64,000 nucleotides of DNA from Gemmatimonadales bacterium (GTDB lineage Bacteria; Gemmatimonadota; Gemmatimonadetes; Gemmatimonadales; GWC2-71-9). Location of the stretch: positions 2,425 to 66,424 of the forward strand of contig JBHEMG010000185.1 of assembly GCA_046262715.1 (NCBI GenBank), read 5' to 3'. The translations under genes were made by a program, and so were the position numbers. Of the stretch, positions 31,065 through 64,000 are shown piece by piece. Within the stretch, counting starts at the first letter, position 1. Each line of letters starts with the position of its first letter. The notes below the pieces were generated by a model. The model worked only from the letters and a program-made list of their open reading frames with translations, did no database searches and was not told where the DNA came from.

Positions 31065-32249
31065 CTAGAGACCGGTCCGGCGACGCAACGTCATCATTGC
31101 CCAGATACCGAATGCTGGTCCGATCGCCAATACGCTCATGCTCCATCGCCAGCCGATGTGCGATGCGACGACCGGCAGCAAGTAAATCGTCGCGCATGTC
31201 ACCAGAAAGCCGAGACTCGTTTGGAGTGTCAGCGCGGTGCCGACGTACTCAGGCGGCGCAAGCTCGCTCACCGCTGCCGAGAATTGCGCGGAATCAGCGA
31301 CGACAGTGACGCCCCACACGAGCAGCAACGGAAGCAGGATGGCGAGCGGCGACCCGAAGAGGAACCCGACCACCAGCGCGCAGCTCCCGGACACAAGCAT
31401 CGCCGCACTCGTGACGAGACTGCGACCCCAGCGGTCGGCGTACCTTCCCCCAAGCCAGCAACCGATCGCACCAGTGCCCACCACGCCGAACGTCACGAGT
31501 GCGGCGAGCGCCGCGACGTCGGCCTGCGGGCCCCGTCGCGCATGCTCGCTCGCGGCGACGAACGCCGCCATCCAGGTCCACATGGCGTAGAGCTCCCACA
31601 TGTGACCGAGATATCCGAGGTTAGCGAGCGCCACCGCGCGGTCGCCTAGAATCCGCGGAACGGCGGCGAGCGAGAAGCGCGCTGACGGAGCCGCATATGG
31701 GCCATCATCGGGAACGAGGAGCACCAGAAGCCCGCCAAAGGCCGCGCTGCAGGCGGCGACGACCAGGACGGTGCGCCACGCGGAAGCAGCGATCGCCCAG
31801 CGCACGAGGTGCGGGCTCGCCGAGCCGAGGGTGAGCGCACCAACCAGAACGCCGATCGCCACTCCTCTTCCTTCTTTGAACCAGCCCGCGGCGATCTTCA
31901 TCCCCGGGGGATAGACCCCAGCGAGGGCAGCGCCTGTGAGCAGCCGACACGCGATGCCCATCGTAATACCGCGTGAGGCAGCCACGCCGACCGTGGCGAC
32001 GGCCGCGAGGACCGCCGATACCGCCACCAGACGGCGCGAAGACACGCGATCGGCGAGGGTGAGGATGGCACTTATGAGCGCCCCGGCGACGAAGCCGAGT
32101 TGGACGGAGATCGTGAGCCACGCCGTGGCCGCGGGGGACAGCTGCCACGCGTGGGCCAAAACAGGAGCGACGGCAGAAGCACTGAACCACGGAGCCATCG
32201 CGAGGAGTACAGCGACAGCGAGTATCAACAGGACCCTACGCGGGCTCAC
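31065..32249 (-). CDS. MFS transporter
   Basis: This is the C-terminal 395 aa of ORF 31065..32792, with many TM segments. GTG 32249 overlaps the Nif3 stop (GTGA). The longer extension overlaps the Nif3 gene out of frame. Confidence 0.8.
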   Translation of the reverse strand: MSPRRVLLILAVAVLLAMAPWFSASAVAPVLAHAWQLSPAATAWLTISVQLGFVAGALISAILTLADRVSSRRLVAVSAVLAAVATVGVAASRGITMGIACRLLTGAALAGVYPPGMKIAAGWFKEGRGVAIGVLVGALTLGSASPHLVRWAIAASAWRTVLVVAACSAAFGGLLVLLVPDDGPYAAPSARFSLAAVPRILGDRAVALANLGYLGHMWELYAMWTWMAAFVAASEHARRGPQADVAALAALVTFGVVGTGAIGCWLGGRYADRWGRSLVTSAAMLVSGSCALVVGFLFGSPLAILLPLLLVWGVTVVADSAQFSAAVSELAPPEYVGTALTLQTSLGFLVTCATIYLLPVVASHIGWRWSMSVLAIGPAFGIWAMMTLRRRTGL

Positions 32250-33001
32250 AAGCCCGTAGGATGATCCAGAAACACCCAGGGCAGGTCGAACTTCTTGGAG
32301 AGATGCTCCGCCAAAGCCTTCACACCAACCGTCTCGGTCGCGTAGTGTCCAGCGTAGAGCGCGTTGATTCCCAATTCTTCGGCATCGAAGAACGTCCAGT
32401 GCTGCCCTTCTCCGGTGATATACGTGTCGAGCCCCGCGGCAGCGGCTTGCGGAATGAGCGCTCCGCCCGCGCCCGTGACGACGCCGACGCGTTGCACACG
32501 CTCTGGCCCGAATGGAAAGACGCGTGGGGCCGCGCCGAGTGCTTTCGTGAGCGCCCAACACAGCTCGTCGCGGGTGCCGCTGTACTCGCCCCAGACACCG
32601 ATGGGCGCGCCGTGATAGGAGCCGAACTCGCCACGGATCGTTATTCCGAGGAGCCGCGCCAAAATCGTGTTGTTGCCGACATCCGGATGACGATCGAGAG
32701 GAAGGTGGGCGGCGTAGAGCGCGATGTTTCCTTTGATCAGTCCCACGAGGCGCCGGTAGGCGGGACCGACCAGCGGCCGCGGCCCACCCCAAAAAAGACC
32801 ATGGTGAACGAGCAGAAGATCTGCGCGCTGATTCAGGGCGAGCCGGACCGTGGCTTCACAGACATCGACGGCCGCAGCCAGCCGCGTCGTTTCGCCCGAA
32901 TTGCCCACTTGGAGCCCATTCAGGGATTCGGGGGCATCAGCCACTTCGTCACGAATCCGGAGATATTCGTCCAGGTATTGGACAACAGTGTCCAAGCGCA
33001 T
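32246..33001 (-). CDS. Nif3-like dinuclear metal centre protein (YbgI/YqfO, GTP cyclohydrolase 1 type 2 homologue)
   Basis: NGLQVGNSGE...LLLVHHGLFWGG...YITGEGQHW...ALYAGHYATE. Confidence 0.85.
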   Translation of the reverse strand: MRLDTVVQYLDEYLRIRDEVADAPESLNGLQVGNSGETTRLAAAVDVCEATVRLALNQRADLLLVHHGLFWGGPRPLVGPAYRRLVGLIKGNIALYAAHLPLDRHPDVGNNTILARLLGITIRGEFGSYHGAPIGVWGEYSGTRDELCWALTKALGAAPRVFPFGPERVQRVGVVTGAGGALIPQAAAAGLDTYITGEGQHWTFFDAEELGINALYAGHYATETVGVKALAEHLSKKFDLPWVFLDHPTGL

Positions 33002-33040: not shown

Positions 33041-33124
33041 TTTTCCACATGGGGGGATGGGTTAAGTCTATCTGTGACAATTACTTGACTAATCCACATA
33101 CCAACGTCCCGATCGTGTGGATAT
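33041..33124. promoter_or_regulatory. Cluster of DnaA-box-like 9-mers in the bactofilin/nif3 intergenic region
   Basis: TTTTCCACA at 33041-33049 (+), TAATCCACA at 33090-33098 (+), and TGTGGATAT at 33116-33124 (equal to ATATCCACA on the minus strand). Each is an 8/9 match to TTATCCACA, and the last two form an inverted pair with a 17-bp spacer. Confidence 0.4.
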
Positions 33125-33544
33125 CTACGCCCGCGCCAAAGAGGCCTGCCCGCGGGTAGCCTGCGGCGCTTGGCCCGCGTCTTCGCCCATCCGCAGGACG
33201 CCGTTGATCTCGCCACCCTCTTGGATCAACAGGCGTTTGGTGTGCACGTCGCCGTGCACGACACTGGTGGCTTGGAGCTCGACCCGCTCCTCGGCATAGA
33301 TCGCCCCGCGCACCTCGCCGCCGATGATTGCTTCGCGGCTCACGACGTCGCCTTCGACTTCCCCGCCCCGCGCTACGAGCACTTGCTTGGCGGCGCGCAC
33401 GGTGCCGTTCACGGAGCCTTCGATTTTTACGACGCCGTCGGCCGAGATGTCGCCCACGACGCGCATGCCGGCGCCGATGATCGAGAGCCCGGGAACGCCT
33501 TCGCGCCCACCGGCGCTCGTGCCTTTTTCGGTGAACACCGCCAT
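33125..33544 (-). CDS. Bactofilin (polymer-forming cytoskeletal protein, CcmA family)
   Basis: Repetitive beta-helix pattern: IIGAGMRVVGDISADGVVKIEGSVNGTVRAAKQVLVARGGEVEGDVVSREAIIGGEVRGAIYA. Confidence 0.85.
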   Translation of the reverse strand: MAVFTEKGTSAGGREGVPGLSIIGAGMRVVGDISADGVVKIEGSVNGTVRAAKQVLVARGGEVEGDVVSREAIIGGEVRGAIYAEERVELQATSVVHGDVHTKRLLIQEGGEINGVLRMGEDAGQAPQATRGQASLARA

Positions 33545-34362
33545 CAGTGCGTTCCTCCCTGTTTTACCATGTCCATCGGATCGATCGATTTGCCGTCGTG
33601 GCGAATTTCGAAATGCAGGTGCGGCGCGGTGGAGCGGCCCGAATTCCCCGACAAGCCGATCACTTGCCCTGCCTGAACATTGTCGCCCTCGGCTGCCAGG
33701 AGCCGTGACGTGTGACCATACATCGTCTCATAGCCGGACGGGTGCCGCAAGAGCACGAACAACCCATAGTCGGGATCGTAGCCGGCGGCCGTCACCCTTC
33801 CCCCTCCCGAGGCCCGTACCGGCGTACTGATCGGCACGGCAATGTCGATGCCGGGATGAGACTCATCGAGCACGCCAGGCCGGATCTGCCCGCGGGTGAC
33901 GAATCCCGCGACATCGAGCGGCCAGTGCGACGGCACGGAGGCGCCGAGCTCGTACGCGGTCAAGGCTCCCGGGAGCGACGCCCGGATCGCGACGGCACGC
34001 ATCGTCGTGCTCAGATCACTGCTGCGCGCCACCGTTCCCCCGCTGCGCGTCACGGGCGGTGCCTTCACACCCAGCATTTGGCGCAGCTCCTGGTAATTCG
34101 CCTCGGCGCGGTTCAATGCCGAAGCAAGCTGTTGGACGCGGCTGTTCTCGACGCGCAGCCGCGAGACTTCACGCTCCAAGACCGGCGCGCGCGCGGCGTT
34201 TCGCGCGATCGGCCCCGCAAATGCGAAGAACAGGACGATCAGGATCGCGACCGCCAACGCGCCCCACTTCCCCGCCATGACCGCCCAGCGCGGGAAACGG
34301 TACTGTTTGGATTCGAGGTCGCCGTCCGCGTGGACGACGATGGTGACGCCCCGCGTGGTCAT
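33544..34362 (-). CDS. M23 family metallopeptidase (LytM-type) with an N-terminal TM and coiled-coil region
   Basis: HPGIDIAVPISTPVRA...YGHTS...GNSGRSTAPHLHFEI. Its stop shares 1 nt with the bactofilin ATG (TGATG). Confidence 0.9.
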   Translation of the reverse strand: MTTRGVTIVVHADGDLESKQYRFPRWAVMAGKWGALAVAILIVLFFAFAGPIARNAARAPVLEREVSRLRVENSRVQQLASALNRAEANYQELRQMLGVKAPPVTRSGGTVARSSDLSTTMRAVAIRASLPGALTAYELGASVPSHWPLDVAGFVTRGQIRPGVLDESHPGIDIAVPISTPVRASGGGRVTAAGYDPDYGLFVLLRHPSGYETMYGHTSRLLAAEGDNVQAGQVIGLSGNSGRSTAPHLHFEIRHDGKSIDPMDMVKQGGTH

Positions 34363-35252
34363 CCGTCGAACGGCGCGCCCAGGATCAGCTCGAGAAGTCG
34401 AGCGAGGTCGTCATTCGAATAGAAGGACAAATGGATCTGTCCTTTCCCTTTTGCCCGAAGCGTAACCCGGACATCAGTCCCGAGGCGGCGGCGCAGCGCA
34501 TCTTCGACCCTGCGCACCTCGGGGGCGGCACCCATCCCTCGTTTCATGCGCGGTCGACGTTCCGGCGCGCGGCCGCCGCGCACACGGTCCTCAACCTCGC
34601 GCACCGACAACCCCTGTGCGACGGCCTCGCGCGCCAGATTCGTCACGACGCGCGGATCTTCCAACGCAAGCAGCGCGCGTGCGTGACCGACCGACAGCTG
34701 GTTCTCGTGCAGCATGTCGAGCACGGCTTCGGGCAGTTTGAGCAACCGAAGCGCATTCGCGACAGTGGAGCGATCCCGGCCGACGGCGTCGGCGACGTCT
34801 TGCTGCGCCAATTTGAATTCGGCGATCAGCCGCTCGTATCCGCGGGCTTCATCCACGGGGGAAAGATCGTCGCGCTGCAGGTTCTCGATCAGCGCCAGCG
34901 TCAGCAGCGTGCGATCATCCGCGTCGCGCTGCACGGCGGGGATGCGTTCCCAGCCTAGCTGCTGACATGCCCGCAACCGCCGCTCCCCAGCGATCAGCTC
35001 GTAGCCGCTGGTGCCACCGTTGGCCCGCCGCACGACAATCGGTTGGAGCAATCCGGCTTGCTTGATGGAAGAGACGAGCTCTTCCAGGGCGCCGGGGTCA
35101 ACGGTCTTGCGCGGCTGGAAGGGGTTGGGACGAATGTCCTGAATCGGTAGCTCGACCAGACTGCCTTCGCGCTGGGCTTCTTCCCGCGTCGGCCCAAGCA
35201 GGGCTTCGAGCCCTCGGCCGAGGCGACGTCCTCCTGCGGCGGTCTCCGTCAT
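34359..35252 (-). CDS. parB: Chromosome partitioning protein ParB (Spo0J)
   Basis: NPFQPRK, LLQPIVVRR, YELIAGERRLRA and an HTH region. ATGA overlaps are present on both sides. Confidence 0.9.
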   Translation of the reverse strand: MTETAAGGRRLGRGLEALLGPTREEAQREGSLVELPIQDIRPNPFQPRKTVDPGALEELVSSIKQAGLLQPIVVRRANGGTSGYELIAGERRLRACQQLGWERIPAVQRDADDRTLLTLALIENLQRDDLSPVDEARGYERLIAEFKLAQQDVADAVGRDRSTVANALRLLKLPEAVLDMLHENQLSVGHARALLALEDPRVVTNLAREAVAQGLSVREVEDRVRGGRAPERRPRMKRGMGAAPEVRRVEDALRRRLGTDVRVTLRAKGKGQIHLSFYSNDDLARLLELILGAPFDG

Positions 35253-36076
35253 GCGGGCACCTCCGGCGAAGGTTCAATAGCGGGGAGGCCAGGCGAGGGG
35301 GGGGCGCCTTGCTCGACCCGTCGGATCAATTCCTGCGCGACCGCGAGGTAACTCTTCGCGCCGATCGATTGCACGTCGTAGAGCACAATTGGCTTCCCGA
35401 AACTCGGCGCTTCCGCGAGACGCACGTTGCGCGGAATCGTGACGTTGAACATGCGACCGCCGAAATACTCTTTGGCTTCTTCGGCCACCTGCTTGCAGAG
35501 ATTGAGGCGCGCGTCGTACATCGTCAGCAGCACGCCCTCGATCGCGAGCGCCGGATTGAAATTGCGCTGCACGAGCTTGACGGTATTGAGAAGCTGCGAC
35601 AGCCCTTCGAGCGCGTAGCACTCGCACTGAATCGGGATGATCACACTGTCGGCTGCGGTCAGCATGTTGAGCGTGAGCAGCCCGAGCGAGGGCGGGCAGT
35701 CGATAATGACGTAGGTGTACTCTTCGCGAATTGCCCGCAGCGCATCGCGCATGCGCGTCTCGCGCGAGCGCTGGCTCACGAGCTCCAGCTCCGCGCCGAC
35801 CAGATCCTGCGTGGCAGGTATAACGTCGAGATAAGGAAAGTGTACGTGCGGAAAACGTGCCTGGGTGAGCGCGGAACCCTCGATTATCGCGTCGTAGAGC
35901 GAATGTCGAATACGGTCGCGCTCGATCCCGACGCCGCTGGTGGAATTTCCCTGCGGATCGGCATCGATGAGCAAGGTCTTTCGCTCGGCGGTCGCGAGAG
36001 ACGCGGCGAGGTTGACGGCGGTCGTCGTTTTGCCGACGCCGCCCTTTTGGTTTGCGATCGCGATTACGCGCGACAT
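35249..36076 (-). CDS. parA: Chromosome partitioning ATPase ParA (Soj)
   Basis: Deviant Walker A IAIANQKGGVGKTTTAVNLA, and YVIIDCPPSLG. Confidence 0.95.
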   Translation of the reverse strand: MSRVIAIANQKGGVGKTTTAVNLAASLATAERKTLLIDADPQGNSTSGVGIERDRIRHSLYDAIIEGSALTQARFPHVHFPYLDVIPATQDLVGAELELVSQRSRETRMRDALRAIREEYTYVIIDCPPSLGLLTLNMLTAADSVIIPIQCECYALEGLSQLLNTVKLVQRNFNPALAIEGVLLTMYDARLNLCKQVAEEAKEYFGGRMFNVTIPRNVRLAEAPSFGKPIVLYDVQSIGAKSYLAVAQELIRRVEQGAPPSPGLPAIEPSPEVPA

Positions 36077-36101
36077 TGTAACATGTTGTTGGACAAGAGG
36101 T

Positions 36102-36131
36102 TATCTAGCTCGCATTTTCGTGTGGGTCCAA
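36102..36131 (-). promoter_or_regulatory. Candidate sigma-70-type promoter of parA
   Basis: The minus strand reads TTGGAC - 18 nt - TAGATA, and parS-1 lies immediately upstream. This is pattern-based only. Confidence 0.3.
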
Positions 36132-36139
36132 TATAAGGT

Positions 36140-36155
36140 CGTTTCACGTGAAACG
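36140..36155. promoter_or_regulatory. parS centromere site 1
   Basis: cGTTTCACGTGAAACg has a perfect palindromic core matching the TGTTNCACGTGAAACA consensus. Confidence 0.85.
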
Positions 36156-36165
36156 AAAGTGCCTA

Positions 36166-36181
36166 AGTTTCACGTGAAACT
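36166..36181. promoter_or_regulatory. parS centromere site 2
   Basis: aGTTTCACGTGAAACt has the same 14-bp core, 26 bp from site 1. Confidence 0.85.
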
Positions 36182-36193
36182 GCAATCAGGGGT

Positions 36194-38059
36194 TCAGGCG
36201 ACCCGGCGACGCCAGCGAGTCGCCTCGAAAACGAGGTTGTGGAGGTCACTCGGGGAGACGCCGGGGACGCGAGCCGCTTGGGCCAGCGAAGCCGGTCGCA
36301 CACGATCGAGTTTCTGCCGCGCCTCCGTTGCCAGCGTCCGCAGCTCGAGGTAGGGGAGATCCGGGGGCAGCACGAACGACGCGAGCTCCGCGAGCCGCGC
36401 AGCCGCCTCACGCTCGCGCGCCAAATACCCGTCGTACTTGATCTCGATCTCCGCCGCCATGACGGCTTCGGCAGATGGCGGTACCAGCCCAGCTGCCGCG
36501 AATAGCGCCGACAACGACACGCCGGGCCGCTTTGCTACGACGGCAATCCGCTCGCTCTCGGTCAGCGATGTCCCGCTTGCTCGCAAAGCACCTGCTGCCC
36601 GCGCGGGCGTGATGGTCGTCGCGCGGGCGAGCTGCAAAACCGAGATTTCGTCGTCCAAGCGGCGCTCCGCTGCGCGCAGCTCGACGTCAGTAAGCAGCCC
36701 CAACCGCTCGGCCAGTGGCACTAAACGACGTAGCGCGTTGTCCTGGCGGAGCAGCAGCCGGAACTCGGAGCGGGACGTAAAGAGCCGGTATGGTTCGTCC
36801 ACTCCGCGCGTCACCAGGTCATCCACCAACACCCCGATATACGCGTCGTCACGGCCGAGGACGACGGGCTCGGCGCCTCGGATCCGCCGCACCGCGTTGA
36901 TCCCGGCGACCGCGCCTTGTCCCGCCGCTTCCTCATAACCGGTCGTGCCGTTGATTTGCCCCGCAAAGAACAGATGCTCGACCGTCTTCACCTCGAGCCA
37001 AGGCGTGAGCTGCGTCGGCGGATAGTAGTCGTACTCGATCGCGTACCCGGGGCGTGTCATCTTCGCGTTCTCGAGACCCGGGACCGCCCTGAGGAACTCG
37101 AGTTGTACCGCTACGGGCAGGGAAGTCGAAAGGCCGTTCACGTAGAGCTCGGCTGTGTCGAGACCCTCAGGCTCGAGAAAAACCTGGTGCCGCTTTGCAT
37201 CGGGAAACTTCACGATCTTGTCCTCCACGGACGGGCAGTAGCGCGGTCCGCGACCGCTGATGGCACCGCCGTAGAGCGCCGACTCTTGCAGATGCGTCTG
37301 AATGATCTGCTTGACCGCTTCGCCAGCCCACGTAATCCAGCACGGCAATTGCCGCGGCCGCTCAAGGCGCTCGTGGAAAGAGAAGCGGAAGTCATCGCTG
37401 TCGCCGTCCTGCCGGTCAACCTTGCTCCAATTCACTGACCGACCGTCGATGCGTGGCGGCGTACCGGTCTTGAAGCGTGATACCGTAAGTCCAAGATTTT
37501 CAATGACTTGCGCCATCTGTACGGATGGTGCTTCACCAGCCCGGCCTGCGGGAATCTGTGTGTCGGTACCGAGGTGGATGCGGCCGCGGAGGAATGTGCC
37601 GGCGGTGATGATGACCGCGCGCGCGGTGAGCCGGCGACCATCGGCGGTTTCGACGCCGGCGATACGTGTGCCGCCGTTGGCAAAGTGCAGATTTGTGACC
37701 ATCCCTTGCATCAGCTCGAGGGAAGTGAATTGCTCGAGCAGCGCACGCACCGCGCGCTTGTAGAGCACCCGATCACACTGCGCGCGCGGGGCCCAGACCG
37801 CGGGACCCTTTGAGCGATTGAGCATCCGGAACTGAATGGTGGCGCGATCGGCGGCCCGGCCCATGATGCCTCCGAGGGCATCGACTTCGCGAACGACGGT
37901 CCCCTTCGCAATGCCGCCGATCGCGGGATTGCACGACATCTGTCCGATGGTTTCGAGGTTGGAGGTAAGCAGCAACGTCATGGCTCCGAGACGCGCCGTC
38001 ATAGCGGCGGCCTCGGTGCCGGCGTGACCTCCACCGATAACTATGACGTCATAGTCCAC
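36194..38059 (-). CDS. mnmG: tRNA uridine-5-carboxymethylaminomethyl(34) synthesis enzyme MnmG (GidA)
   Basis: DYDVIVIGGGHAGTEAA, NPAIGGIAKG, GPRYCPSVEDK, FFAGQINGTTGYEEAA. GTG start. Confidence 0.95.
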   Translation of the reverse strand: MDYDVIVIGGGHAGTEAAAMTARLGAMTLLLTSNLETIGQMSCNPAIGGIAKGTVVREVDALGGIMGRAADRATIQFRMLNRSKGPAVWAPRAQCDRVLYKRAVRALLEQFTSLELMQGMVTNLHFANGGTRIAGVETADGRRLTARAVIITAGTFLRGRIHLGTDTQIPAGRAGEAPSVQMAQVIENLGLTVSRFKTGTPPRIDGRSVNWSKVDRQDGDSDDFRFSFHERLERPRQLPCWITWAGEAVKQIIQTHLQESALYGGAISGRGPRYCPSVEDKIVKFPDAKRHQVFLEPEGLDTAELYVNGLSTSLPVAVQLEFLRAVPGLENAKMTRPGYAIEYDYYPPTQLTPWLEVKTVEHLFFAGQINGTTGYEEAAGQGAVAGINAVRRIRGAEPVVLGRDDAYIGVLVDDLVTRGVDEPYRLFTSRSEFRLLLRQDNALRRLVPLAERLGLLTDVELRAAERRLDDEISVLQLARATTITPARAAGALRASGTSLTESERIAVVAKRPGVSLSALFAAAGLVPPSAEAVMAAEIEIKYDGYLAREREAAARLAELASFVLPPDLPYLELRTLATEARQKLDRVRPASLAQAARVPGVSPSDLHNLVFEATRWRRRVA

Positions 38060-40897: not shown

Positions 40898-42208
40898 TTA
40901 GGCCGGAACGCCGAAAAGCGCACCCGCTTTCCGGACCGCGGCGACTAACGCGTCGACGTCGTCCACGTCGTTGTAGATGTAAAAGGAAGCGCGCGCCGTT
41001 GCCGCCACACCGAGACGCCGCATGAGCGGTTGGGTGCAGTGATGGCCGGCGCGAATGCAGACGCCGTCGCGGTCGAGAATCGTTGCAAGGTCGTGCGGAT
41101 GGATATCGCCATAGGTGAACGGCACCACACCGGCCCGATGATCGCGCGGCCCGTAGACCGTCACACCGTCGATTTCGCCCAGCCGTTCGATCGCAATACG
41201 CGCGAGATCCCGCTCGTGCTCGGAGACCTGTTCCATCCCGAGCTGCTCCAGATAGGCGATCGCGGCTCCCAAACCGACGGCGGCCTCGACGTTGGGCGTC
41301 CCGCCCTCGAACTTGTGCGGAATCTTGTTCCAGCTGGAGCGGTCGTCCCACACGCGCTCGATCATTTCACCGCCGCCATGGTAGGGTGGCATCTCCTCCA
41401 AGAGCGCCGGTTTGGCGACGAGCGCTCCGCTCCCCATGGGCGCGAGCATCTTGTGGCCGGAGAGGGCGTAGAAGTCGCAGTCGAGCGCCTGAACGTCGAC
41501 CCGCAGATGGGGGCTCGACTGGGCCCCGTCCACCATCGTGACCGCCCCCGCCGCGTGGGCCAGCTTGCAGAGCTGCCCCACCGGGTTCACGGTCCCAAGG
41601 GAGTTCGAGACATAAGGAAAGGCAACGAGCTTGGGCAGCAATTCGAGCGCGCGGCCGAAGTCCGACAGGTCGATCCGTCCGTCGGCCGTGATCTCGACCA
41701 TCCGGAGGCTGGCGCCCTTTTCCTGACAGAGGATCTGCCATGGCACGATGTTGGAATGGTGATCCATGGCCGTTACTACCACGGTATCGCCGCGGCTCAC
41801 GTTGGCGCGGCCCCAGGACGAGGCGACGAGGTTGATCGCCTCGGTCGTGCCGCGCGTGAACACCACGCCTTCCCGCGCCCAGGCATTCACGAACCGGGCG
41901 ACGGCGGTTCGCCCCGCTTCATACGCCTCCGTTGCCTCCACCGCCAGCGCGTACGCGCCGCGGTGGACGTTCGCGTTGTGAAAGCTGTAGTAGTGGACGA
42001 GAGCCTCGATCACTTTTCGCGGCTTCTGGCTGGTTGCGGCGTTGTCGAGGTACACAAGCCGCTGCCCGTTCTCTTTTTGCGAGAGAATCGGGAAGTCAGG
42101 CCGTATGCGGCTGGTGTCGATCAGAAATCCCGCGCGGACTCGGTCGTGACCGGCTCGGCGCTCTTTTGCAGCGCCGCGTGCAAGGCATGCCACGCGAGGC
42201 TCGCGCAC
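40898..42208 (-). CDS. sufS: Cysteine desulfurase SufS
   Basis: RPDFPILSQ...VYLDNAATSQKP, SGHKMLAPMGSG, RAGHHCTQPLM. The listed ATG 42208 would overlap sufU by 88 nt; a CTG overlapping the sufU stop is an alternative (see findings). Confidence 0.9.
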   Translation of the reverse strand: MREPRVACLARGAAKERRAGHDRVRAGFLIDTSRIRPDFPILSQKENGQRLVYLDNAATSQKPRKVIEALVHYYSFHNANVHRGAYALAVEATEAYEAGRTAVARFVNAWAREGVVFTRGTTEAINLVASSWGRANVSRGDTVVVTAMDHHSNIVPWQILCQEKGASLRMVEITADGRIDLSDFGRALELLPKLVAFPYVSNSLGTVNPVGQLCKLAHAAGAVTMVDGAQSSPHLRVDVQALDCDFYALSGHKMLAPMGSGALVAKPALLEEMPPYHGGGEMIERVWDDRSSWNKIPHKFEGGTPNVEAAVGLGAAIAYLEQLGMEQVSEHERDLARIAIERLGEIDGVTVYGPRDHRAGVVPFTYGDIHPHDLATILDRDGVCIRAGHHCTQPLMRRLGVAATARASFYIYNDVDDVDALVAAVRKAGALFGVPA

Positions 42209-42579
42209 TTGATGCGGCTCGGGAATGCACGCACACCGGAAAACGCCACGAGCTTGCCGGGCGCACTTGCGCCGCCCGCGAGCATTTCACGAAAGGCCTG
42301 GAACATTCCCTCGGCGTCGGCGACGGGCTTTCCTTTGACGGCGTCGGTCATTAGCGACGCGGACGCCTTGGAGATGGCGCAGCCTGCGCCCTGCGGCATC
42401 TGAAATCCGATGTCGCTGATCTTGTCGTCGTCGACCTGCACGTAGAGCTGAATGCGATCACCGCACAGCGGATTATTCCCCTCGGCTCGATGACTCGCTG
42501 TCTCCATCCGTTTGAAATTCCGCGGATTGCGATTGTGGTCGAGAATGACCTGCTGATAGAGATCCCCGAGATCGGTCAC
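42121..42579 (-). CDS. sufU: SUF system NifU-family Fe-S scaffold SufU
   Basis: LYQQVILDHNRNPRNF, NPLCGD, GAGCAISKASAS, RIKCASLAW. Confidence 0.85.
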   Translation of the reverse strand: MTDLGDLYQQVILDHNRNPRNFKRMETASHRAEGNNPLCGDRIQLYVQVDDDKISDIGFQMPQGAGCAISKASASLMTDAVKGKPVADAEGMFQAFREMLAGGASAPGKLVAFSGVRAFPSRIKCASLAWHALHAALQKSAEPVTTESARDF

Positions 42580-43898
42580 GACTCTGCCAAGCGATCGCGT
42601 ACGATGCGGTCGAGCTGTGTCCGCAACGGGCCGACGTCCATACGGCCGAGGATCTCGGCGGCAAAGCCGTAGGTCAGCAGCCGGCGCGCCTCATGCTCAC
42701 CGACGCCGCGGCTTCGCAGGTAAAAGAGCGCGCGCGGATCGAGCGGGCCGACCGTGGAGCCGTGCGTGCATTTCACGTCGTCGGCATAGATCTCGAGCTG
42801 CGGCTGACTGTCGGCGTGCGCCTCGGACGAGAGCAGCAGGTTGTTATTGGTTTGCTTGGAATCGGTCTTCTGCGCCCCGGGTCGCACGATGATCCGCCCG
42901 GTGAAGACGCCGCGCGATTTCCCGTCGAGCACGCCGTTGAAATACTCATGACTCTCGCAATGGTCGGCGGCGTGATCGATGGTCGTGTGGTGGTCGGCAT
43001 GCTGCTCGCCGGCGAGCAGATACAGGCCATTGAGAACCAGCGTACCTCCCGGCCCTGCCATGACGCTGCCGATGTCATGCCGAGCGAGCGCGGCACCGAA
43101 CGCCACGACATGGAGATTGACGGTGCTGTCGCGGCCCTGATGCGTATCAGTTGCGGCCACGTGAAAGGCGCCGGGGCCCTCGCGCTGCACGCGGTGCAAA
43201 TCGACGCGGGCGCCGTCGCCCGCGCTGATTTCGGTGACGGCGTTGGTCCAATACGGCCCGTCGCCGATCGCGGCGTACGTCTCGATAATGGAGGCACGCG
43301 CTTCGCGCTCGACGACGAAGAGGCTCCGGGGATGCGTGACCACACGCGCGTTCTTCGTCGGCATCGCGAGAAAGAGCAGTTGAATCGGCTCGGCGACACT
43401 CTGCTTGGCGGGAATGTGGACGAAGGCGCCGTCACGCAGAAAGGCGGTGTTGAGGGCGGAGAACGGACGCTCCTGGTGCTCGGCGTATCTGCAGAGATGC
43501 GCGCGTACAAGGTCGGGCTGATCGGCGAGCGCCTGCCCCAAACCGTCCACGCGCACGGCGCCCGCAATCACGGTAGACAGCGTGCGCTGCAGGAAGCCGT
43601 TGACGAACACGAGCCGAGCACCGCCATCGTCGAGCAGAAAGGGGCGGATCTCTTCGAGCGTCGGAACGCGGGTGGGCGGATGCGCAGGCTCGAACGTGGC
43701 ATCCGCGATCGCCGAGACGCTCGTGAAGCGCCACGCTTCCTGCTTCATGGTGGGGAATCCCAGCGCGCCGAATCGGGCGATACCGCCCTCGCGCAGATCC
43801 TTCAGCCAGCCGGGCGCGCGGGAGGCGCCGTTCGCCGCCCATGCGTGGTAGGAGCCAACCAGCCGTTCGACGGAACCCGTTTTCACTGCCATCGTCAC
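42576..43898 (-). CDS. sufD: Fe-S cluster assembly protein SufD
   Basis: Its position between sufC and sufU, plus C-terminal beta-helix blocks (VFTGRIIVRPGAQKTDSKQTNNNLLLS...PQLEIYADDVKCTHGSTVG). Confidence 0.85.
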   Translation of the reverse strand: MTMAVKTGSVERLVGSYHAWAANGASRAPGWLKDLREGGIARFGALGFPTMKQEAWRFTSVSAIADATFEPAHPPTRVPTLEEIRPFLLDDGGARLVFVNGFLQRTLSTVIAGAVRVDGLGQALADQPDLVRAHLCRYAEHQERPFSALNTAFLRDGAFVHIPAKQSVAEPIQLLFLAMPTKNARVVTHPRSLFVVEREARASIIETYAAIGDGPYWTNAVTEISAGDGARVDLHRVQREGPGAFHVAATDTHQGRDSTVNLHVVAFGAALARHDIGSVMAGPGGTLVLNGLYLLAGEQHADHHTTIDHAADHCESHEYFNGVLDGKSRGVFTGRIIVRPGAQKTDSKQTNNNLLLSSEAHADSQPQLEIYADDVKCTHGSTVGPLDPRALFYLRSRGVGEHEARRLLTYGFAAEILGRMDVGPLRTQLDRIVRDRLAES

Positions 43899-44685
43899 GA
43901 CACCATCACGCCATCACGCAGCCAGTCGTAGCCTCGGGCCTCGAGTTCTTGTGCCAGTTCGGGACCCCCGGACTTCACGATCCGCCCGTGCGCCAGGACG
44001 TGGACGACGTCCGGCGTGATGTAGTCCAGCAGCCGCTGGTAGTGCGTCACGATCAAGAAGGAGCGATCGGGACTCCGCAGCTTGTTCACCGTCTCGGCGA
44101 CCGTTTTCAGGGCGTCGATGTCGAGGCCCGAGTCGGTTTCATCGAGAACGGCCAGCCTGGGCTCGAGCACAGCGAGCTGCAGGATCTCGTTGCGTTTCTT
44201 CTCGCCGCCCGAGAAGCCCTCGTTCACCGGACGGTTCATCATCGTGTCGTCCCAGCCGATGGCTTTCAGCTTCGCTTCGAGCACCTGGAGGAAATCGATC
44301 GGATCGAGCTCCGGCTGGCCGCGATGCCTGCGCAGCGAGTTGAGCGCCGAGCGCAGGAAATAGGAGTTCGTGATGCCGCGAATCTCGACGGGATACTGGA
44401 ACGCGAGAAACACGCCTTCACGCGCGCGCTCCTCAGGCTTGAGATCGAGCAAGTCCTTGCCGTCGTAGGTCGCGCTGCCGCCGAGCACCGTGTAGGCCGG
44501 ATGACCGGCGAGCACCTGGGCGAGCGTGCTCTTGCCCGAGCCGTTCGGCCCCATGATCGCGTGCACTTCCCCGTCGCGGATGGTGAGATCCACGCCCTTC
44601 AGAATCTCGGTGCCGGCAACAGCGACGCGCAGTCCTTTCACCTGCAGGAGCACGTTTGCCGTTTCCCGTTTCTCGCGTCCCGACA

Positions 44686-44686
<1 letters not shown>
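43895..44686 (-). CDS. sufC: Fe-S cluster assembly ATPase SufC
   Basis: This is the internal part of ORF 43895..44935. LQVKGLRVAV...GPNGSGKSTL, FSGGEKKRNEILQ, AVLDETDSGLD. ATG 44686 overlaps the sufB stop (TAATG). Confidence 0.95.
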
Positions 44687-46119
<1,433 letters not shown>

Positions 46120-46181
46120 CGCGCCCTTGGAAGTCGTTGCAAGACATGAGTTTGGCAATTAAAAACTGAGCTCAATTGGGA

Positions 46182-47487: not shown

Positions 47488-49569
<2,082 letters not shown>

Positions 49570-58117: not shown

Positions 58118-60946
58118 TTATCCCTTCGCGTCGATCCAATTCTTTCCGGCGCCGATACTTACGAGCAATGGCACACGCAGGCTGGCAACTCCCTCCATCT
58201 CGCGTTTTACAAGGGTCCCGGCAGCTGCCCGCTCGGATTCCGGGATTTCGAACACCAGCTCGTCATGCACCTGTAAGAGCATTTTGGCGCGCAGATCGGC
58301 CCGCCGCAGCGCCGCGTGGATCCGGATCATGGCGATCTTGATGAGGTCTGCCGCCGACCCCTGCAGCGGCGAATTGGTCGCCGTCCGCTCGCCGAATGCC
58401 CGGATGCTGAAGTTCCTGTCGCGAAGCTCCGGGATGTAGCGCCGCCGGCCGAACAACGTCTCTACGAACCCCTTCTGGCGCGCTTCCTCAACGGTCTTGT
58501 CGAGCCAGGCGCGTACGCCGGCAAAGCGTTCGAAGTAGTGCTTGATGAACGACTTTGCCTCGTCCAGCGTAATGCCGAGCTGCCGAGACAACGCCAGCGG
58601 CCCCTGTCCGTAGATCGTCGCGAAATTGATTGTCTTGGCGCGGGCGCGCATCTCTCCGGTGACGTTTTCTTCCGGGACGCCGAAGATGACCGCTGCCGTT
58701 TGCCGGTGGATGTCGCCGCCGCGCTGGAACGCCGCCACGAACGACGGATCCTCGGAGAGATGCGCGAGCAAACGCAGCTCGATCTGCGAGTAATCGGCGA
58801 TGAGCAGCTCGCGACCCGGAGGGGCGACGAACGCGCGCCGGATTTCCCCGCCCCGGCGCGTGCGTACGGGAATATTCTGGAGATTAGGATCCGACGACGA
58901 CAGCCGGCCCGTCGCTGCGCCGGTCTGATTGAAGGTCGTGTGTACCCGGCCCGTGTCGGCCTGGATGTAACCGGGGAGCGCGTCCACGTATGTGGACTGC
59001 AGCTTCGACAGCTCCCGGTACTCGATCAGCAGTCGTGGGACCTCATGACCCAGGGCCGCGAGCTGTTCCAGCACTTCAACGTCGGTGGACGGGCCGGTCT
59101 TCGTGCGCTTCTGCACCGGCAGTTTCAACCGCTCGAATAGAATCGTTCGCAGCTGGGGGGTCGAGCCGATGTTGAACTCGCCGCCGGCGGCACGGTAAAT
59201 GTCGAGCTCCAACACCTTCAGCTCTTTACTGAATCCACGCGACATCTCTCCCAGGAACGCTCGATCGACCAGAATGCCGGTGGCTTCCATGTCCACCAGC
59301 ACCGGGATCAGCGGAATCTCGATCTCATCCAGCAACTGCGTCAAATGATGGGCCTCGATGTCGGCACGGAAGGTCTCCTCCAGCCGCAGCACCATTTCCG
59401 TCTGCGCCGCGGAAACTCTCGCTGCCTCCGCCACCGGGACCTCGGCCAGCGTTCGCTCCGTGACGCCGCCTTTGACCTTCCCGAGCAGCTGCGCCGTCAT
59501 TGGGAGCTCGACGGAGAGATGCTCGCGCGCCAGATCATTCATTGCATGCGAGCGGCTGCCAGGATCGAGCACGAAGCTGGCGACCATTGAGTCGTACGCC
59601 ACGCCGGCGAGCGCGACGCCCGCGCGCGCGAGAGCGACCCACACCGCCTTGATGTCGTGGCCTGCCTTTCGGACATCTGGGTCGGCCAGCGCCGCGCGCA
59701 GCTCCGCCAGCGCGGGACTCGCAAGCGATGGGAGGTTTCGCGGCGCCTTGCTCTCGAATTCGTTTTCGCGCGCGTGATGACCGAGCGGCAGGTACCACGA
59801 ACGCCCGGGCGCGACCGCGATCGAGAGTCCCACAACCTGGGGATCGGTGTGAATTGCCACGAGCCTGGCCGCTCGCAGCTCCTTGATCATCGCCGGCAGT
59901 GCGGCGGGATCGTCGATAATTGTCGGATCGGCGAGCTGGGGCGTGCGGACCGCGGGCGCCGGGGCCGGCCCCCCCGCCGGCCCCGCCTCGACGGACGGAG
60001 CGCCCCCCACCGCGGCGAGATCATCGAGCTTCGGGATGAGGGTGCGGAACTCGAGCTCGGTGAACAGCGCCGCGAGGCTCTCGGTGTCTGGCGTGCGGAC
60101 GCCGAGCTGATCGAGATCGAGCTCGACCGGCACGTCCCGGCGCAGTGTGACCAGCTGGCGCGAAAGACGGGCATTGTCGGCCTGCTGAAGCAGCGCTTCG
60201 CGCGGGCGCTTACCCGGAATATCGGCCGCGCGCGCGAGGATGGTGTCGAGGTCGCCATACGTTTCCAGCAGCTGAACGGCGGTCTTGTCGCCGATGCCCT
60301 TCACGCCCGGGATATTGTCGGAGGTATCACCGACCAGCGCGAGGAAATCCACCACCTGCGCCGGCGGGACGCCCAGCCGCTCGTTCGCGTTGGTGTGATC
60401 CACCCACTGCTCCTCGACGGCCGCTTGCCCGCCGCGGCCGGGATTGAGCAGCGCGACTCCATCGCCGATCAGCTGATAGAAGTCCTTGTCGCCCGACACG
60501 ATGACGGCCTGCATACCGTCGTGCGCCACGCGCTCAGCGAGCGTCGCCACCACGTCGTCGGCCTCGTAGCCGTTGATCGCGATGACGGGAATGTGAAACG
60601 CATCGAGGATCTGGCACACGCGCTCGAGCGAGCGATCGAAGTCCTGCTGTAGCTCCTCGCTCAGCTTCTCGCGCGTCGCCTTATACTCGGCGTATTGCTC
60701 TTGGCGGAACGACTTTCCCCGATCGTGGACCCAGCCGATGTACTCGGGATGGTAGTTTTCGTAGAGCCGCAGCAGAAAGTTCGTGATGCCCCAGACCGCG
60801 GACGTGTTCTCCCCGCTTTTCGTCGTCAGCGGCCGGGCAATCATCGCAAAAAACGCCCGGTAGATAAGGGCGTACCCGTCGACCAGGAAGACACACTTCC
60901 GGCCGGCGGCGGTGGCGGGAATTGGCGGGGCGGGACGCGGAGGCAT
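58118..60946 (-). CDS. polA: DNA polymerase I
   Basis: 5'-nuclease (LVDGYALIYRAFFA), exonuclease-like and polymerase domains (DYSQIELR, QVHDELV). The start is ATG 60946 or TTG 60976. Confidence 0.95.
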   Translation of the reverse strand: MPPRPAPPIPATAAGRKCVFLVDGYALIYRAFFAMIARPLTTKSGENTSAVWGITNFLLRLYENYHPEYIGWVHDRGKSFRQEQYAEYKATREKLSEELQQDFDRSLERVCQILDAFHIPVIAINGYEADDVVATLAERVAHDGMQAVIVSGDKDFYQLIGDGVALLNPGRGGQAAVEEQWVDHTNANERLGVPPAQVVDFLALVGDTSDNIPGVKGIGDKTAVQLLETYGDLDTILARAADIPGKRPREALLQQADNARLSRQLVTLRRDVPVELDLDQLGVRTPDTESLAALFTELEFRTLIPKLDDLAAVGGAPSVEAGPAGGPAPAPAVRTPQLADPTIIDDPAALPAMIKELRAARLVAIHTDPQVVGLSIAVAPGRSWYLPLGHHARENEFESKAPRNLPSLASPALAELRAALADPDVRKAGHDIKAVWVALARAGVALAGVAYDSMVASFVLDPGSRSHAMNDLAREHLSVELPMTAQLLGKVKGGVTERTLAEVPVAEAARVSAAQTEMVLRLEETFRADIEAHHLTQLLDEIEIPLIPVLVDMEATGILVDRAFLGEMSRGFSKELKVLELDIYRAAGGEFNIGSTPQLRTILFERLKLPVQKRTKTGPSTDVEVLEQLAALGHEVPRLLIEYRELSKLQSTYVDALPGYIQADTGRVHTTFNQTGAATGRLSSSDPNLQNIPVRTRRGGEIRRAFVAPPGRELLIADYSQIELRLLAHLSEDPSFVAAFQRGGDIHRQTAAVIFGVPEENVTGEMRARAKTINFATIYGQGPLALSRQLGITLDEAKSFIKHYFERFAGVRAWLDKTVEEARQKGFVETLFGRRRYIPELRDRNFSIRAFGERTATNSPLQGSAADLIKIAMIRIHAALRRADLRAKMLLQVHDELVFEIPESERAAAGTLVKREMEGVASLRVPLLVSIGAGKNWIDAKG

Positions 60947-60976
60947 GGACTGGAAAACTAGCCACGGAAACAACAA

Positions 60977-61309: not shown

Positions 61310-63544
61310 TCAGGATGGCCCATACAACGCGCGATACAACTCGCGATTGCGCAATAAACTCCGCACATAACCGCGCGTTTCCGGATAGGGGATGAGCTCG
61401 ATGAATCGGTCGGGATCTCCCGCTCCGTCGCGCGCGAGCCAGCGGCGAACCGGCACCGGTCCCGCGTTGTACGCGGCGATGGCGGCGTCCACCCTCCCAA
61501 ACCGCCGAATCAGCTCCGCGAGATGCGCCGCTCCGAGGTGCAGATTGAGATCGGGGACGGTAAGCCACTCCGGGAAGAACGCGACGTCGAGCCCGCGCGC
61601 CATCAGCGCGGCGGTGCTCGGCAACAGCTGCACGAGGCCGCGCGCCCCCGCCGGTGACAGCGCCTCGACGTCGAAGACACTCTCCTGACGCACGAGCGCG
61701 GCGAGGAGCAACGCATCGACGCCGAACTCCTCCGCTTCCGCCTCGACCGCGGCGCGATTGGGCCAGGGGAAGATTGCCCGCAGCACGCGCACGTCCCCCG
61801 GCGCCAGCAGCGCCGCCTGCCAGCCGAGTCGCACCGCCGCCGAGCCGTACCCTCGCGTGCTCAGACCCTCGCTCCACCCCAATAACGCCTCGAGATCCTG
61901 CGGCGGCCTGGCCAACACGATCCGCACTTCGGCTTGGGCCTCGCTATCCAGTCCGGCGAGCAGCAGCGTGTCGATACGCGCGAGACCGGTGGCAATCGCA
62001 GGCGGCGGTGTGCTGCGTGCCGGAGGCGCGGTAAACGTGAGGGGCCCAAGGCCGGTTTCGCGGCGCGCGCGCATCCCGTAGTACCCGAGCGAGTCTTCGT
62101 GCGCGAGCGTCACCCAGATATTGCGCGCCTGGGCAGAATCGCCCCGACCTTCCGCCATCTTGGCGAGCCAGAAGCGCGCGGCGGTTCGCTGCGGTCCCGC
62201 CGCATCGATCTCCGCCTGGTACAAGACCGCGGCACTGTCGAGCTGGCCCGCGCCCTCGGCGTGGGCGGCGAGGCGAAACCGCGCCAGCGATGCGCGAGGA
62301 TCGGCGGGATAGCGGGTCATCAGCTCGCGATACCAATGCACGGCGTCGGGCCACCGGTCGCGGCTCTCCATCATGTCAGCCAACAGATAGAGGGCGCCCG
62401 GCGCCGCGGTGTCCGTCGGATAGCTCTGCGCGAAGCGGGACAGCGCGCCGATCGCCGTCGAGTCCCCGAGGCGGACGAGGACGCGCGCACGGCGGGACAT
62501 CGCCGCACGTCCCAAGGTCGAGTCGCGGGTCGCTGCGCCATACGCGCGTACCGCGTCGCGCAACCGGCCGCCGGCCAGAAGTAAGTCTCCATAGAACAGC
62601 AGCGTCGTCGCGCTCGAATCCCCTGCGTGGAGGGCGTGCTCGACATGCATGCGCGCGTCGCGCGACGTAGTGCGCCGGTTCAATGCGCGCGCGAGGACGA
62701 CGTGCTCCGCGGGATCGCGCGGCGGGAGCGGTCCGAGCGCGAGCGGCACGGCCGCGGCCGCGTCATCGCTCAGCGGATCGCGGGTGAACAGTTTGTACAC
62801 GAGCGCGCGAGCGCGCGCTGAGTCGCCGGTCAGCAATGCCAGGCGGGCGGCGTCCAGTCCCTTCCCTGCCGCCGCGAACGCGTCGAGCGCTCTGGTTGTA
62901 TCGCCCGCGAGTAGCAGGGAGCGCGCGCGCGCGAGCGGCACATCCCGGGCCGCCGGTGCCGGCACATCCATGAGCAACCGACTCGCCTCGGCCGTATCCC
63001 TGGTGACACGCGCCTGCCGCACCCGCAACCACGGATCGATTGCCGGGAGCGCGCCGCCCTCACGCGCCGCCGCAAACGCAACCGCCGCGCTGTCAGGCTG
63101 CCCGGCCGCCTCGTACGCGAGAGCCGCCCGCACGGCGAGCAGCGGTTTGCGCGCCGCCGGCGCGCGCGCACGGGCCAGCTGGAAATGCGTCGCCGCGTCG
63201 GCGTACCGAGACACACCGAATTCCGCCTGGGCCAGCACCGCGAGCGCTTCGCCGTCCAGATAGTCGGTCAGCCACGGTTGCCCAGACAGCAGGATCCGCG
63301 CGCGCTCGTAGCGCCGGGCGTGCACTTCGGCCTTGGCGCCTTCGACGATGAGAAATGCATCGGGGTTCGGCTCACGACGTGCCGCGGCGAGCAGCGTCTC
63401 CGCGGCATGCCAGGGGCGGCCCGCCAGCCGCAATGAATCGGCGCGATACGTGGCGGTGTGGTCGGCGGGAGCGACGCTTTGTGCCCTTCCCCTCACCGCG
63501 GACACGACCAACACCGCGATCCCGAGGGCGACGCCGCGTCTCAC
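61310..63544 (-). CDS. Lytic murein transglycosylase (Slt70-like: superhelical TPR-like N-domain plus SLT catalytic domain)
   Basis: ORF 61310..63673. C-terminal LVRQESVFD...GARGLVQLLPSTA...AYNAGP. The preferred start is GTG 63544, giving the signal VRRGVALGIAVLVVSAVRGRAQS and a GTGA overlap with the upstream stop. Confidence 0.85.
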   Translation of the reverse strand: MRRGVALGIAVLVVSAVRGRAQSVAPADHTATYRADSLRLAGRPWHAAETLLAAARREPNPDAFLIVEGAKAEVHARRYERARILLSGQPWLTDYLDGEALAVLAQAEFGVSRYADAATHFQLARARAPAARKPLLAVRAALAYEAAGQPDSAAVAFAAAREGGALPAIDPWLRVRQARVTRDTAEASRLLMDVPAPAARDVPLARARSLLLAGDTTRALDAFAAAGKGLDAARLALLTGDSARARALVYKLFTRDPLSDDAAAAVPLALGPLPPRDPAEHVVLARALNRRTTSRDARMHVEHALHAGDSSATTLLFYGDLLLAGGRLRDAVRAYGAATRDSTLGRAAMSRRARVLVRLGDSTAIGALSRFAQSYPTDTAAPGALYLLADMMESRDRWPDAVHWYRELMTRYPADPRASLARFRLAAHAEGAGQLDSAAVLYQAEIDAAGPQRTAARFWLAKMAEGRGDSAQARNIWVTLAHEDSLGYYGMRARRETGLGPLTFTAPPARSTPPPAIATGLARIDTLLLAGLDSEAQAEVRIVLARPPQDLEALLGWSEGLSTRGYGSAAVRLGWQAALLAPGDVRVLRAIFPWPNRAAVEAEAEEFGVDALLLAALVRQESVFDVEALSPAGARGLVQLLPSTAALMARGLDVAFFPEWLTVPDLNLHLGAAHLAELIRRFGRVDAAIAAYNAGPVPVRRWLARDGAGDPDRFIELIPYPETRGYVRSLLRNRELYRALYGPS

Positions 63545-64000
63545 CTGCCTGAGCGCCTCACTCGCGCCAACACCCGCTGAAACTCGGCGCGCGACGTCGG
63601 GGTCAGACGAAAGCGGCTGAAACCAGTTTGATCTTGGAAATAGAGGACCAGGCGCTGAACGGCATACGTCCAACGCAACACCCGCATGCCGTTGCGCTCG
63701 ATGCCATTGGACAGGTCGAGCATTTCATCGGGCTCGCCCAAGGAAACGAGGACCTCCCCGCGCTCCGTCAGCCACCCCGCCTCCCCTTCGTCGGGAAAGC
63801 GCAGGTTGGCCTGCTGGATTCGCTTGAAGTACTCGTCCAGCGCCTCGTTCTCCGTCGTGATCGGCGTGGGATCGGTAGCTCTCCAGAAATCGCGCCACAA
63901 CTCCAAGCGCCGGGCAGGCGTCGCGCGCCGCAGCGAGTCCACCCATTCCTGCTGATCGAAATAGCGCAGCAGGCTCAGCATTTCGTCGAAGTTCGTGATG
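63541..64000 (-). CDS. GWxTD domain protein, C-terminal part; the 5' end lies beyond the right edge
   Basis: ORF 63541..63981 plus an open frame to position 64000 (my translation ...ITNFDEMLSLL has no stop). FW...TDPTPITTENE...YFKRIQQANLRF...GWLTERGEVLVSLGEPD matches the GWxTD pattern. Confidence 0.7.
   Translation of the reverse strand, partial: ITNFDEMLSLLRYFDQQEWVDSLRRATPARRLELWRDFWRATDPTPITTENEALDEYFKRIQQANLRFPDEGEAGWLTERGEVLVSLGEPDEMLDLSNGIERNGMRVLRWTYAVQRLVLYFQDQTGFSRFRLTPTSRAEFQRVLARVRRSGR

Follow-up and report, generated by a model that had tools for sequence, protein, structure and literature searches.

In many bacteria, the region around the replication origin carries the conserved gene cluster rnpA-yidC-jag-gidA-gidB-parA-parB. 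Here we analyse a window of 64 kb (the whole stretch of DNA under study, 64,000 nucleotides (nt) of contig JBHEMG010000185.1) from a soil bacterium of the Gemmatimonadales, in which parA and parB are followed without a gap by genes for an M23 peptidase and a bactofilin. Bactofilin-M23 modules and the ParABS chromosome partition system are both well studied, always as separate topics, and in this locus the two stand in one compact four-gene unit.

On the peptidase side, the best described relative is LmdC of Hyphomonas and Rhodospirillum, an essential DD-endopeptidase that is recruited by the bactofilin BacA; it consists of a cytoplasmic tail, a transmembrane (TM) segment, a coiled coil and an M23 domain, and has a conserved β-hairpin that is required for BacA binding (PMC10945521). 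The study that described it (Pohl et al. 2024, eLife) lists 226 species in which an M23 gene and a bactofilin gene are neighbours, a list that contains no Gemmatimonadota, Caldithrix or Cloacimonadota, and it does not mention parAB (PMC10945521). On the partition side, parA-parB-bacM-MXAN_7474 of Myxococcus xanthus are co-transcribed; their bactofilin, BacM, gives the cell its shape, and segregation does without it (PMC3899335, PMC5703909). Bdellovibrio bacteriovorus has a co-transcribed parA3-parB-bd3904 operon, in which bd3904 encodes a bactofilin of unknown function (PMC7186360, PMC10547168). A further connection comes from M. xanthus, where ParABS is positioned by the bactofilins BacNOP via the ParB-fold adaptor PadC (Lin et al. 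2017, PMC5703909). Gemmatimonadota divide by FtsZ-based binary fission and have no Min, MipZ, PomZ or MapZ, according to a study that mentions the parAB operon and no bactofilin (PMC11271474). Our own literature search found no treatment of bactofilins in Gemmatimonadota and no description of a parAB-M23-bactofilin operon.

The unit lies on the minus strand of the window and comprises parA (35249-36076, 275 amino acids, aa), parB (34359-35252, 297 aa), the gene of a putatively bitopic, LmdC-like M23 peptidase (33544-34362, 272 aa) and the bactofilin gene (33125-33544, 139 aa). It is flanked on the same strand by mnmG/gidA (36194-38059), the conserved upstream neighbour of parA, and, 123 nt beyond the bactofilin gene, by a NIF3/YbgI-family gene (32246-33001), the conserved downstream neighbour. 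All six genes were defined from open reading frames (ORFs) and Pfam matches. The locus shares with the common origin cluster the order gidA-parA-parB and the nearby parS sites, with jag/gidB or yidC upstream in related loci, but it has no rsmG (gidB) between gidA and parA and is extended downstream by the M23, bactofilin and NIF3 genes. As in lmdC-bacA of Hyphomonas neptunium and Rhodospirillum rubrum and in csd1-ccmA, the M23 gene lies directly upstream of, and overlaps, the bactofilin gene; unlike lmdC-bacA, the pair sits behind parA-parB and is translationally coupled to parB, whereas the alphaproteobacterial pairs that we sampled are not linked to parAB. With the bacM and bd3904 operons it shares a bactofilin gene on the same strand downstream of chromosomal parAB near the origin, but those published cases have no M23 peptidase gene interposed between parB and the bactofilin gene. 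The components are thus ordinary members of known families, and the operon merges the lmdC-bacA and the parAB-bactofilin arrangements. NCBIfam models match four of the locus genes, leave the M23 protein without an equivalog-level name and include none that matches the window bactofilin.

Read from the sequence, the junctions are ATGA at 35249-35252 (parA stop and parB start), ATGA at 34359-34362 (parB stop and M23 start) and TGATG at 33542-33546 (M23 stop and bactofilin start, a 1-nt overlap). The ORFs, the Pfam matches and these junctions reproduce the four-gene unit and the coordinates of the original prediction, which had been made from the letters of the DNA and its ORFs. No other type of overlap is as frequent in bacterial operons as the 4-nt ATGA, which is unremarkable on its own. 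In close relatives, the parA/parB overlap of 4 nt recurs in 32 of 33 loci and that of parB/M23 in 28 of 30, and the bactofilin start lies -1 to +2 nt from the M23 stop in 23 of 24. A consensus scan inside the unit found no promoter-like site and nothing above shuffle expectation; from parA to the bactofilin stop there was no convincing terminator, the single match (34255-34234, in the M23 gene) being within shuffle expectation. With overlaps that are kept in relatives, no internal sigma70-like promoter and no convincing terminator, the description of the four genes as one compact unit holds, and they are very likely co-transcribed. No non-coding RNAs or tRNAs were found in the operon region. 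Plus-strand ORFs over the operon (for example 33170-33676, 33712-34422 and 35309-36136) were set aside as high-GC antisense artefacts; the minus-strand genes have strong family matches.

Coupling of this kind had been taken to mean that the peptidase and the bactofilin are expressed stoichiometrically with the segregation proteins, which over-reads the overlaps: they indicate coupling, not equimolarity. The Shine-Dalgarno sequences of parB (GGAGGTG, 5 nt upstream of the start) and of the bactofilin gene (GGGAGGA, 8 nt upstream of the ATG) are strong, whereas the M23 start has none. Because the M23 gene has no such site of its own, whereas the bactofilin gene has a strong one, it would rely on re-initiation after parB; little enzyme and much scaffold would therefore be expected. 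In one relative (L007), parB and the M23 gene are 8 nt apart and GGAGGG is present there.

The M23 protein matches Pfam Peptidase_M23 (PF01551) over residues 168-262 (1e-32, 112 bits), and all five zinc-binding and catalytic positions are present: H169 and D173 (in HPGID), H217 and H248-L-H250. The corresponding HDHHH pattern is shared by 48 of 54 parB-linked homologues in which all of these positions are covered. We modelled the protein with AlphaFold2 from a 35-sequence alignment (mean predicted local distance difference test (pLDDT) score of 86.5). The model begins with a β-hairpin, predicted to be cytoplasmic, whose strands span residues 6-11 and 18-23 (pLDDT 76-93); a single continuous helix follows (25-96), in which the TM stretch WGALAVAILIVLFFAFAGPIA runs on as a coiled coil, and then a disordered linker (107-131) and the M23 domain (148-265). 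The hairpin carries a motif of the type xTLIVVPxG...RxhxhS that is kept among the 35 aligned sequences as well as in other phyla. Matches in a structure search of the PDB were restricted to the M23 domain, and the best solved neighbour was Csd1 of Helicobacter pylori, whose partner is the bactofilin CcmA.

Taken together, the model predicts the architecture of LmdC for the window protein: bitopic, with a short cytoplasmic β-hairpin tail, one TM helix, a periplasmic coiled coil and an intact M23 domain with all catalytic residues. It is shorter than LmdC (272 aa) and has one coiled-coil stretch where LmdC has three. By likeness to LmdC, the protein probably binds the bactofilin and has DD-endopeptidase activity. 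The helix at 25-96 bears out the N-terminal TM and coiled-coil region that had been read from the sequence, and the layout and the Csd1 match agree with the view that M23 peptidase and bactofilin form a cell-wall module of a known type, LmdC-BacA or Csd1-CcmA.

A coiled coil with a LytM domain is, however, also the layout of EnvC, and the LytM domains of EnvC and DipM were close structural matches too. The M23 protein might then be a division or cell-separation factor that acts at the septum like EnvC, NlpD or DipM, as a hydrolase or an amidase activator, with the bactofilin as septal scaffold, and segregation would be coupled to cytokinesis and not to cell shape. Some lineages would suit such a role. 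In the same parB-M23-bactofilin position, a locus of the Longimicrobiales (L002, 5001-5771) and three further loci (L136, L139 and L141) have GEHGR, PDNHR, ADNHH or TDDHH in place of HDHHH. Their active sites are degenerate, like those of LytM proteins of the activator type, and the M23 protein of these lineages is presumably a non-enzymatic LytM factor. In the window protein, by contrast, every catalytic residue is intact, and the predicted TM anchor with its cytoplasmic β-hairpin is the hallmark of LmdC and is found in none of EnvC, NlpD and DipM. Its NCBIfam matches to EnvC, NlpD, DipM and ActS fall far below the cut-offs, and there are no ftsEX genes nearby. We regard a septal role of this kind as quite improbable.

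The bactofilin is a standard single-domain member of its family (PF04519, also DUF583; residues 21-116, 9e-25, 87 bits, profile positions 1-96 of 98), with tails of about 20 residues on each side. Bactofilins can be targeted to the membrane by an N-terminal sequence with the consensus MFSKKKK; in the variant of Bacteroidota, the fourth residue is acidic (PMC12448750). Translation from the ATG at 33544 gives the N-terminus MAVFTEKG. An alternative GTG start at 33538-33536 would give MFTEKG, which fits the Bacteroidota-type variant (PMC12448750); the start would then lie 5 nt past the M23 stop, with no overlap. The alternative start, codon 3 of the longer frame, is ATG in the relatives L005-L007 and ATC in L008, and the N-termini of bactofilins in relatives read MAMFTEK, MAMFSRP and MSIFG. 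Membrane targeting of the window bactofilin is plausible but unsettled.

The partition half is, by its sequence, a canonical chromosomal ParABS system. The deviant Walker A motif of ParA (Pfam AAA_31/CbiA, 4e-65) reads KGGVGKT. ParB matches the Pfam domains ParB_N, HTH_ParB and ParB_C, that is, a CTPase-type N-terminal domain with GERRLRA, a helix-turn-helix and a C-terminal dimerisation domain. Two parS sites, both GTTTCACGTGAAAC with a perfect palindromic core and neither assigned to a strand, lie 65-104 nt upstream of parA, the proximal one at 36141-36154 and the distal one at 36167-36180. They are the only parS matches in the 64 kb at up to two mismatches, where 0.18 would be expected. Among 72 related loci, 51 have parS within 300 nt upstream of parA.

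The proximal parS also appears to lie within the promoter of the operon. Aligning the gidA-parA intergenic region of 21 Gemmatimonadales loci gave a footprint of, in order, parS, a CTTT(A/C) block, 17-18 nt and TATATTG. The -10-like TATATTG is kept in all 21 loci (at least 90% per column, with a variable final G) and lies in the window at 36129-36135 on the minus strand, with about 5 nt between it and the proximal parS upstream; the CTTT(A/C) block stands about 17-18 nt upstream of it, and the -35-like hexamer of the window is TTTCGT (36153-36158, minus strand), where relatives have TTTACC. On the strength of this conservation, the region reads as a putative sigma70-like promoter, TTT(C/A)(G/C)N-N17/18-TATATT, with the proximal parS of the window filling the spacer between the -35-like and the -10-like element. 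A strict consensus scan missed this candidate, and its only match between gidA and parA was the proximal parS palindrome. If the promoter reading is right, ParB bound to parS would occupy the promoter from which all of the operon is read, and from the footprint we infer that ParB may regulate the operon that encodes it. Directly before the parA ATG, the 21-locus footprint contains a second conserved and AT-rich block, ataTAAC..aTT......AA.aa.TTA, and parA has no Shine-Dalgarno sequence. The region as a whole (36077-36180), with a parS in the spacer, the AT-rich block and parA without a Shine-Dalgarno sequence, suggests ParB autoregulation together with an unusual leader.

We followed the linkage of the four genes in two independent surveys. 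One started from the M23 protein and included a scan of a single genome for each species, from which a sample of 80 M23 loci was annotated with profiles; the other started from ParB in a metagenome sample and is unbiased as to what follows parB. With the M23 seed, a relative at 81% identity has the same order gidA-parA-parB-M23-bactofilin-NIF3, and all four distant representatives that were looked up (31-37% identity, one of them from the Longimicrobiales) have parA-parB-M23-bactofilin. A bactofilin gene directly follows the M23 gene in 13 of the 80 loci, 12 of which could be assessed upstream, and in 9 of these 12, parA-parB precede the pair in the same orientation (four loci from Gemmatimonadales, two from metagenome-assembled genomes, MAGs, of Bacillota, and one each from Zixibacteria, Caldithrix and Cloacimonadota), compared to none of 66 M23 genes that lack a bactofilin neighbour (Fisher p = 1.2e-9). 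Two pairs from alphaproteobacteria (L073 and L084) and one from Paenibacillus (L080) are not linked to parAB. One WOR-3 contig reads parA-parB-M23 and then ends. In the two Bacillota MAGs (L021, 4210-8231, and L023, 2769-6884), a small TM protein of about 175-180 aa is encoded between parB and the M23-bactofilin pair. The first of them has the pair duplicated in tandem, and the second additionally has LarB/LarC-like genes between parB and the pair, as well as a perfect parS immediately behind parB.

With the ParB seed, at 80% ParB identity or more, an M23 gene directly follows parB in 30 of 30 assessable loci; a bactofilin gene is also seen in 21 of them, and the contig ends in the other nine. 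Between 51 and 67% identity, 17 loci have the M23 gene (12 of them also the bactofilin gene) and 7 do not, of which three (L135, L138 and L143) have a gene for a BMP-family lipoprotein in the M23-bactofilin position, before NIF3. Between 40 and 50%, five loci have both genes, five have a bactofilin gene directly after parB and no M23 gene, and eight have neither. The five bactofilin-only loci (L165, 1885-3163, and L149, L150, L154 and L160; ParB identity 44-50%) are arranged as in Myxococcus and Bdellovibrio, and L165 has three tandem bactofilin genes. NIF3/YbgI is the downstream neighbour throughout Gemmatimonadota, with a BMP-family lipoprotein gene inserted before it in some lineages (for example L124 and L137).

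Gemmatimonadota thus carry the parAB-M23-bactofilin linkage as a rule, and it recurs outside the phylum. A synteny survey of parB-M23-bactofilin had been proposed as a check, and it found the order kept in Gemmatimonadota and recurring in Zixibacteria, Caldithrix, Cloacimonadota and Bacillota MAGs. The original prediction had further held that the arrangement is undescribed for organisms of this kind. This stands insofar as we found no description of such an operon; it has to be qualified in that parAB-bactofilin operons are published and that the arrangement is standard in Gemmatimonadota and not specific to the window. What is new is the merged linkage, conserved across a phylum and recurring in several others, both halves of which were already known.

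Conserved adjacency can also be without meaning, and the origin-region neighbours gidA, NIF3, jag and yidC are conserved as well without a known mechanistic link. A shape module might have come to lie beside parAB by inheritance or chance, its M23 and bactofilin genes being transcribed separately, and the three Gemmatimonadota-like loci with the lipoprotein gene, which lack the pair at this position, as well as the unlinked alphaproteobacterial and Paenibacillus pairs, could be cited in support. Yet the conserved 4-nt and 1-nt overlaps leave no space for a separate M23 promoter or ribosome-binding site, homologues with no more than 31-37% protein identity and members of other phyla still show the linkage, and the association is specific to those M23 genes that have a bactofilin partner. 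We consider it very improbable indeed that the adjacency means nothing.

The reading that we favour, and hold to be somewhat more probable than all others together, is that of two separate modules, ParABS and LmdC-bactofilin, under shared, origin-proximal and possibly ParB-controlled expression. A precedent for separate functions is the parA-parB-bacM operon of M. xanthus, in which segregation does not need BacM (PMC3899335, PMC5703909). All four genes would be driven from a single promoter in the gidA-parA intergenic region, with parS embedded in it. Translation would be coupled, with parB and the M23 gene starting within the preceding stop (ATGA) and the bactofilin gene starting at TGATG behind its own strong ribosome-binding site, so that the four products would be made in concert yet in unequal amounts, the enzyme scarce and the scaffold abundant. 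The cytoplasmic β-hairpin tail of the M23 protein would dock on a membrane-associated bactofilin polymer, and this docking would confine the cleavage of peptidoglycan cross-links to a defined place in the envelope. What the two modules share would be regulation, made up of origin-proximal gene dosage, the one promoter and possibly repression by ParB at the promoter parS, and synthesis of the wall module would then track the replication and segregation cycle.

Several points weigh against this reading. Binding of LmdC to a bactofilin has been demonstrated in two alphaproteobacteria only (PMC10945521). The N-terminus MAVFTEKG departs from the targeting consensus MFSKKKK unless the GTG start is used. 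The promoter and its autoregulation were deduced from a footprint, and the -35-like hexamer of the window is a weak one. In a minority of lineages, the M23 protein at this position is catalytically degenerate, which suggests that hydrolysis is not always the selected function. Finally, the gene order is kept throughout whole phyla, to an extent that exceeds what is usual for unrelated genes, and this favours a closer functional tie.

Such a tie could be physical. A landmark of bactofilin and LmdC-like peptidase, at a pole, a subpolar region or the future division site, might capture ParB-parS or ParA, and thereby anchor the origin and remodel the wall at one spot. That parB-(M23)-bactofilin adjacency is conserved so deeply and so widely speaks for this, as does the positioning of ParB and ParA by BacNOP in M. 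xanthus (PMC5703909). The authors of the Bdellovibrio work speculated along the same lines for bd3904 (PMC7186360), and in Gemmatimonadota, without Min, MipZ, PomZ or MapZ, the organisation of division site and poles is unexplained (PMC11271474). The Myxococcus precedent had been invoked for the window from the start, but it points the other way: BacNOP do organise ParABS, and bactofilins and ParABS share one functional context there, but the bactofilin of the parAB operon itself, BacM, is not needed for segregation (PMC5703909, PMC3899335), and PadC is not in the window. The bacNOP-padC locus is, moreover, separate from parAB, and the only known mechanism requires PadC and the long C-terminal tail of BacP, neither of which is present here. 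A profile search of all window ORFs found no PadC-like gene, no second ParB or ParA, no second bactofilin and no second M23 protein; the window has one ParB-fold gene and one bactofilin, the C-terminal tail of which is about 20 residues long. A physical ParAB-bactofilin machine is thus less likely than shared regulation, and we rate it as unlikely.

A wider form of the idea is more doubtful still. The parAB-(lmdC)-bactofilin arrangement may be an ancient supra-operon of many phyla that works as one system, in which ParB at the promoter parS would set the level of bactofilin and LmdC once per cell cycle, and the resulting membrane patch would mark the pole or division site that holds the ParB-bound origin. 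If this were true, it would provide a spatial landmark for lineages without Min, MipZ and PomZ, such as Gemmatimonadota. A link to budding was also considered (Gemmatimonas owes its name to its "buds", and the bud neck of Hyphomonas is controlled by LmdC-BacA) and was dropped, time-lapse microscopy having shown binary fission and appendages that are not buds (PMC11271474).

The intergenic region directly 3' of the bactofilin stop holds a conserved element, a trio of DnaA-box-like sequences at 33041-33124 (assigned to no strand). Box 1 (ATATCCACA, 33116-33124) and box 2 (TAATCCACA, 33090-33098) form an inverted pair, and box 3 (TTTTCCACA) lies at 33041-33049; the trio can also be written as the inverted pair ATATCCACA ... 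TGTGGATTA followed by the third box TGTGGAAAA. Three of the six matches to TTATCCACA in the window (up to one mismatch) fall within these 84 base pairs, a cluster with a chance of about 6e-5, and the only perfect TTWTNCACA match of the window is here too. Boxes 1 and 2 can fold into a hairpin, behind which most relatives have a T-rich run, and this hairpin may also terminate the operon. Since both arms are invariant and do not covary, protein binding at the two boxes is indicated. The element may serve as a cluster of DnaA boxes, as a nif3 promoter under DnaA control or as a roadblock. An oriC at this place is unlikely, given a region of 123 nt, no minimum of cumulative GC skew and no divergent gene orientation. 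None of the 20 long window ORFs that were scanned (at least 330 aa) is dnaA, dnaN, mreB or an fts gene, and the lack of dnaA and dnaN weighs against oriC as well.

Elsewhere in the window, a gene for a 23S rRNA intervening-sequence protein (four-helix bundle, PF05635; 38128-38550, minus strand) lies between an ABC-2 transporter pair and gidA and is kept in the relative L001. A SUF iron-sulfur assembly cluster (sufS, sufD, sufC and sufB; 40898-46158, minus strand) is located upstream of the operon, and thiC (47574-48923), polA (58118-60976) and an SLT lytic transglycosylase gene (61310-63673) are also present.

Why parAB operons should include a bactofilin gene, as they do with bacM and bd3904, becomes a question again in the light of this linkage. 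A regulatory link would be a simple means of matching local wall hydrolysis in time to the chromosome cycle, and a physical one would point to the landmark system that is missing in phyla without Min, MipZ and PomZ (PMC11271474). With either link, the operon gives the cell biology of Gemmatimonadota, of which almost nothing is known, a concrete candidate that can be tested.

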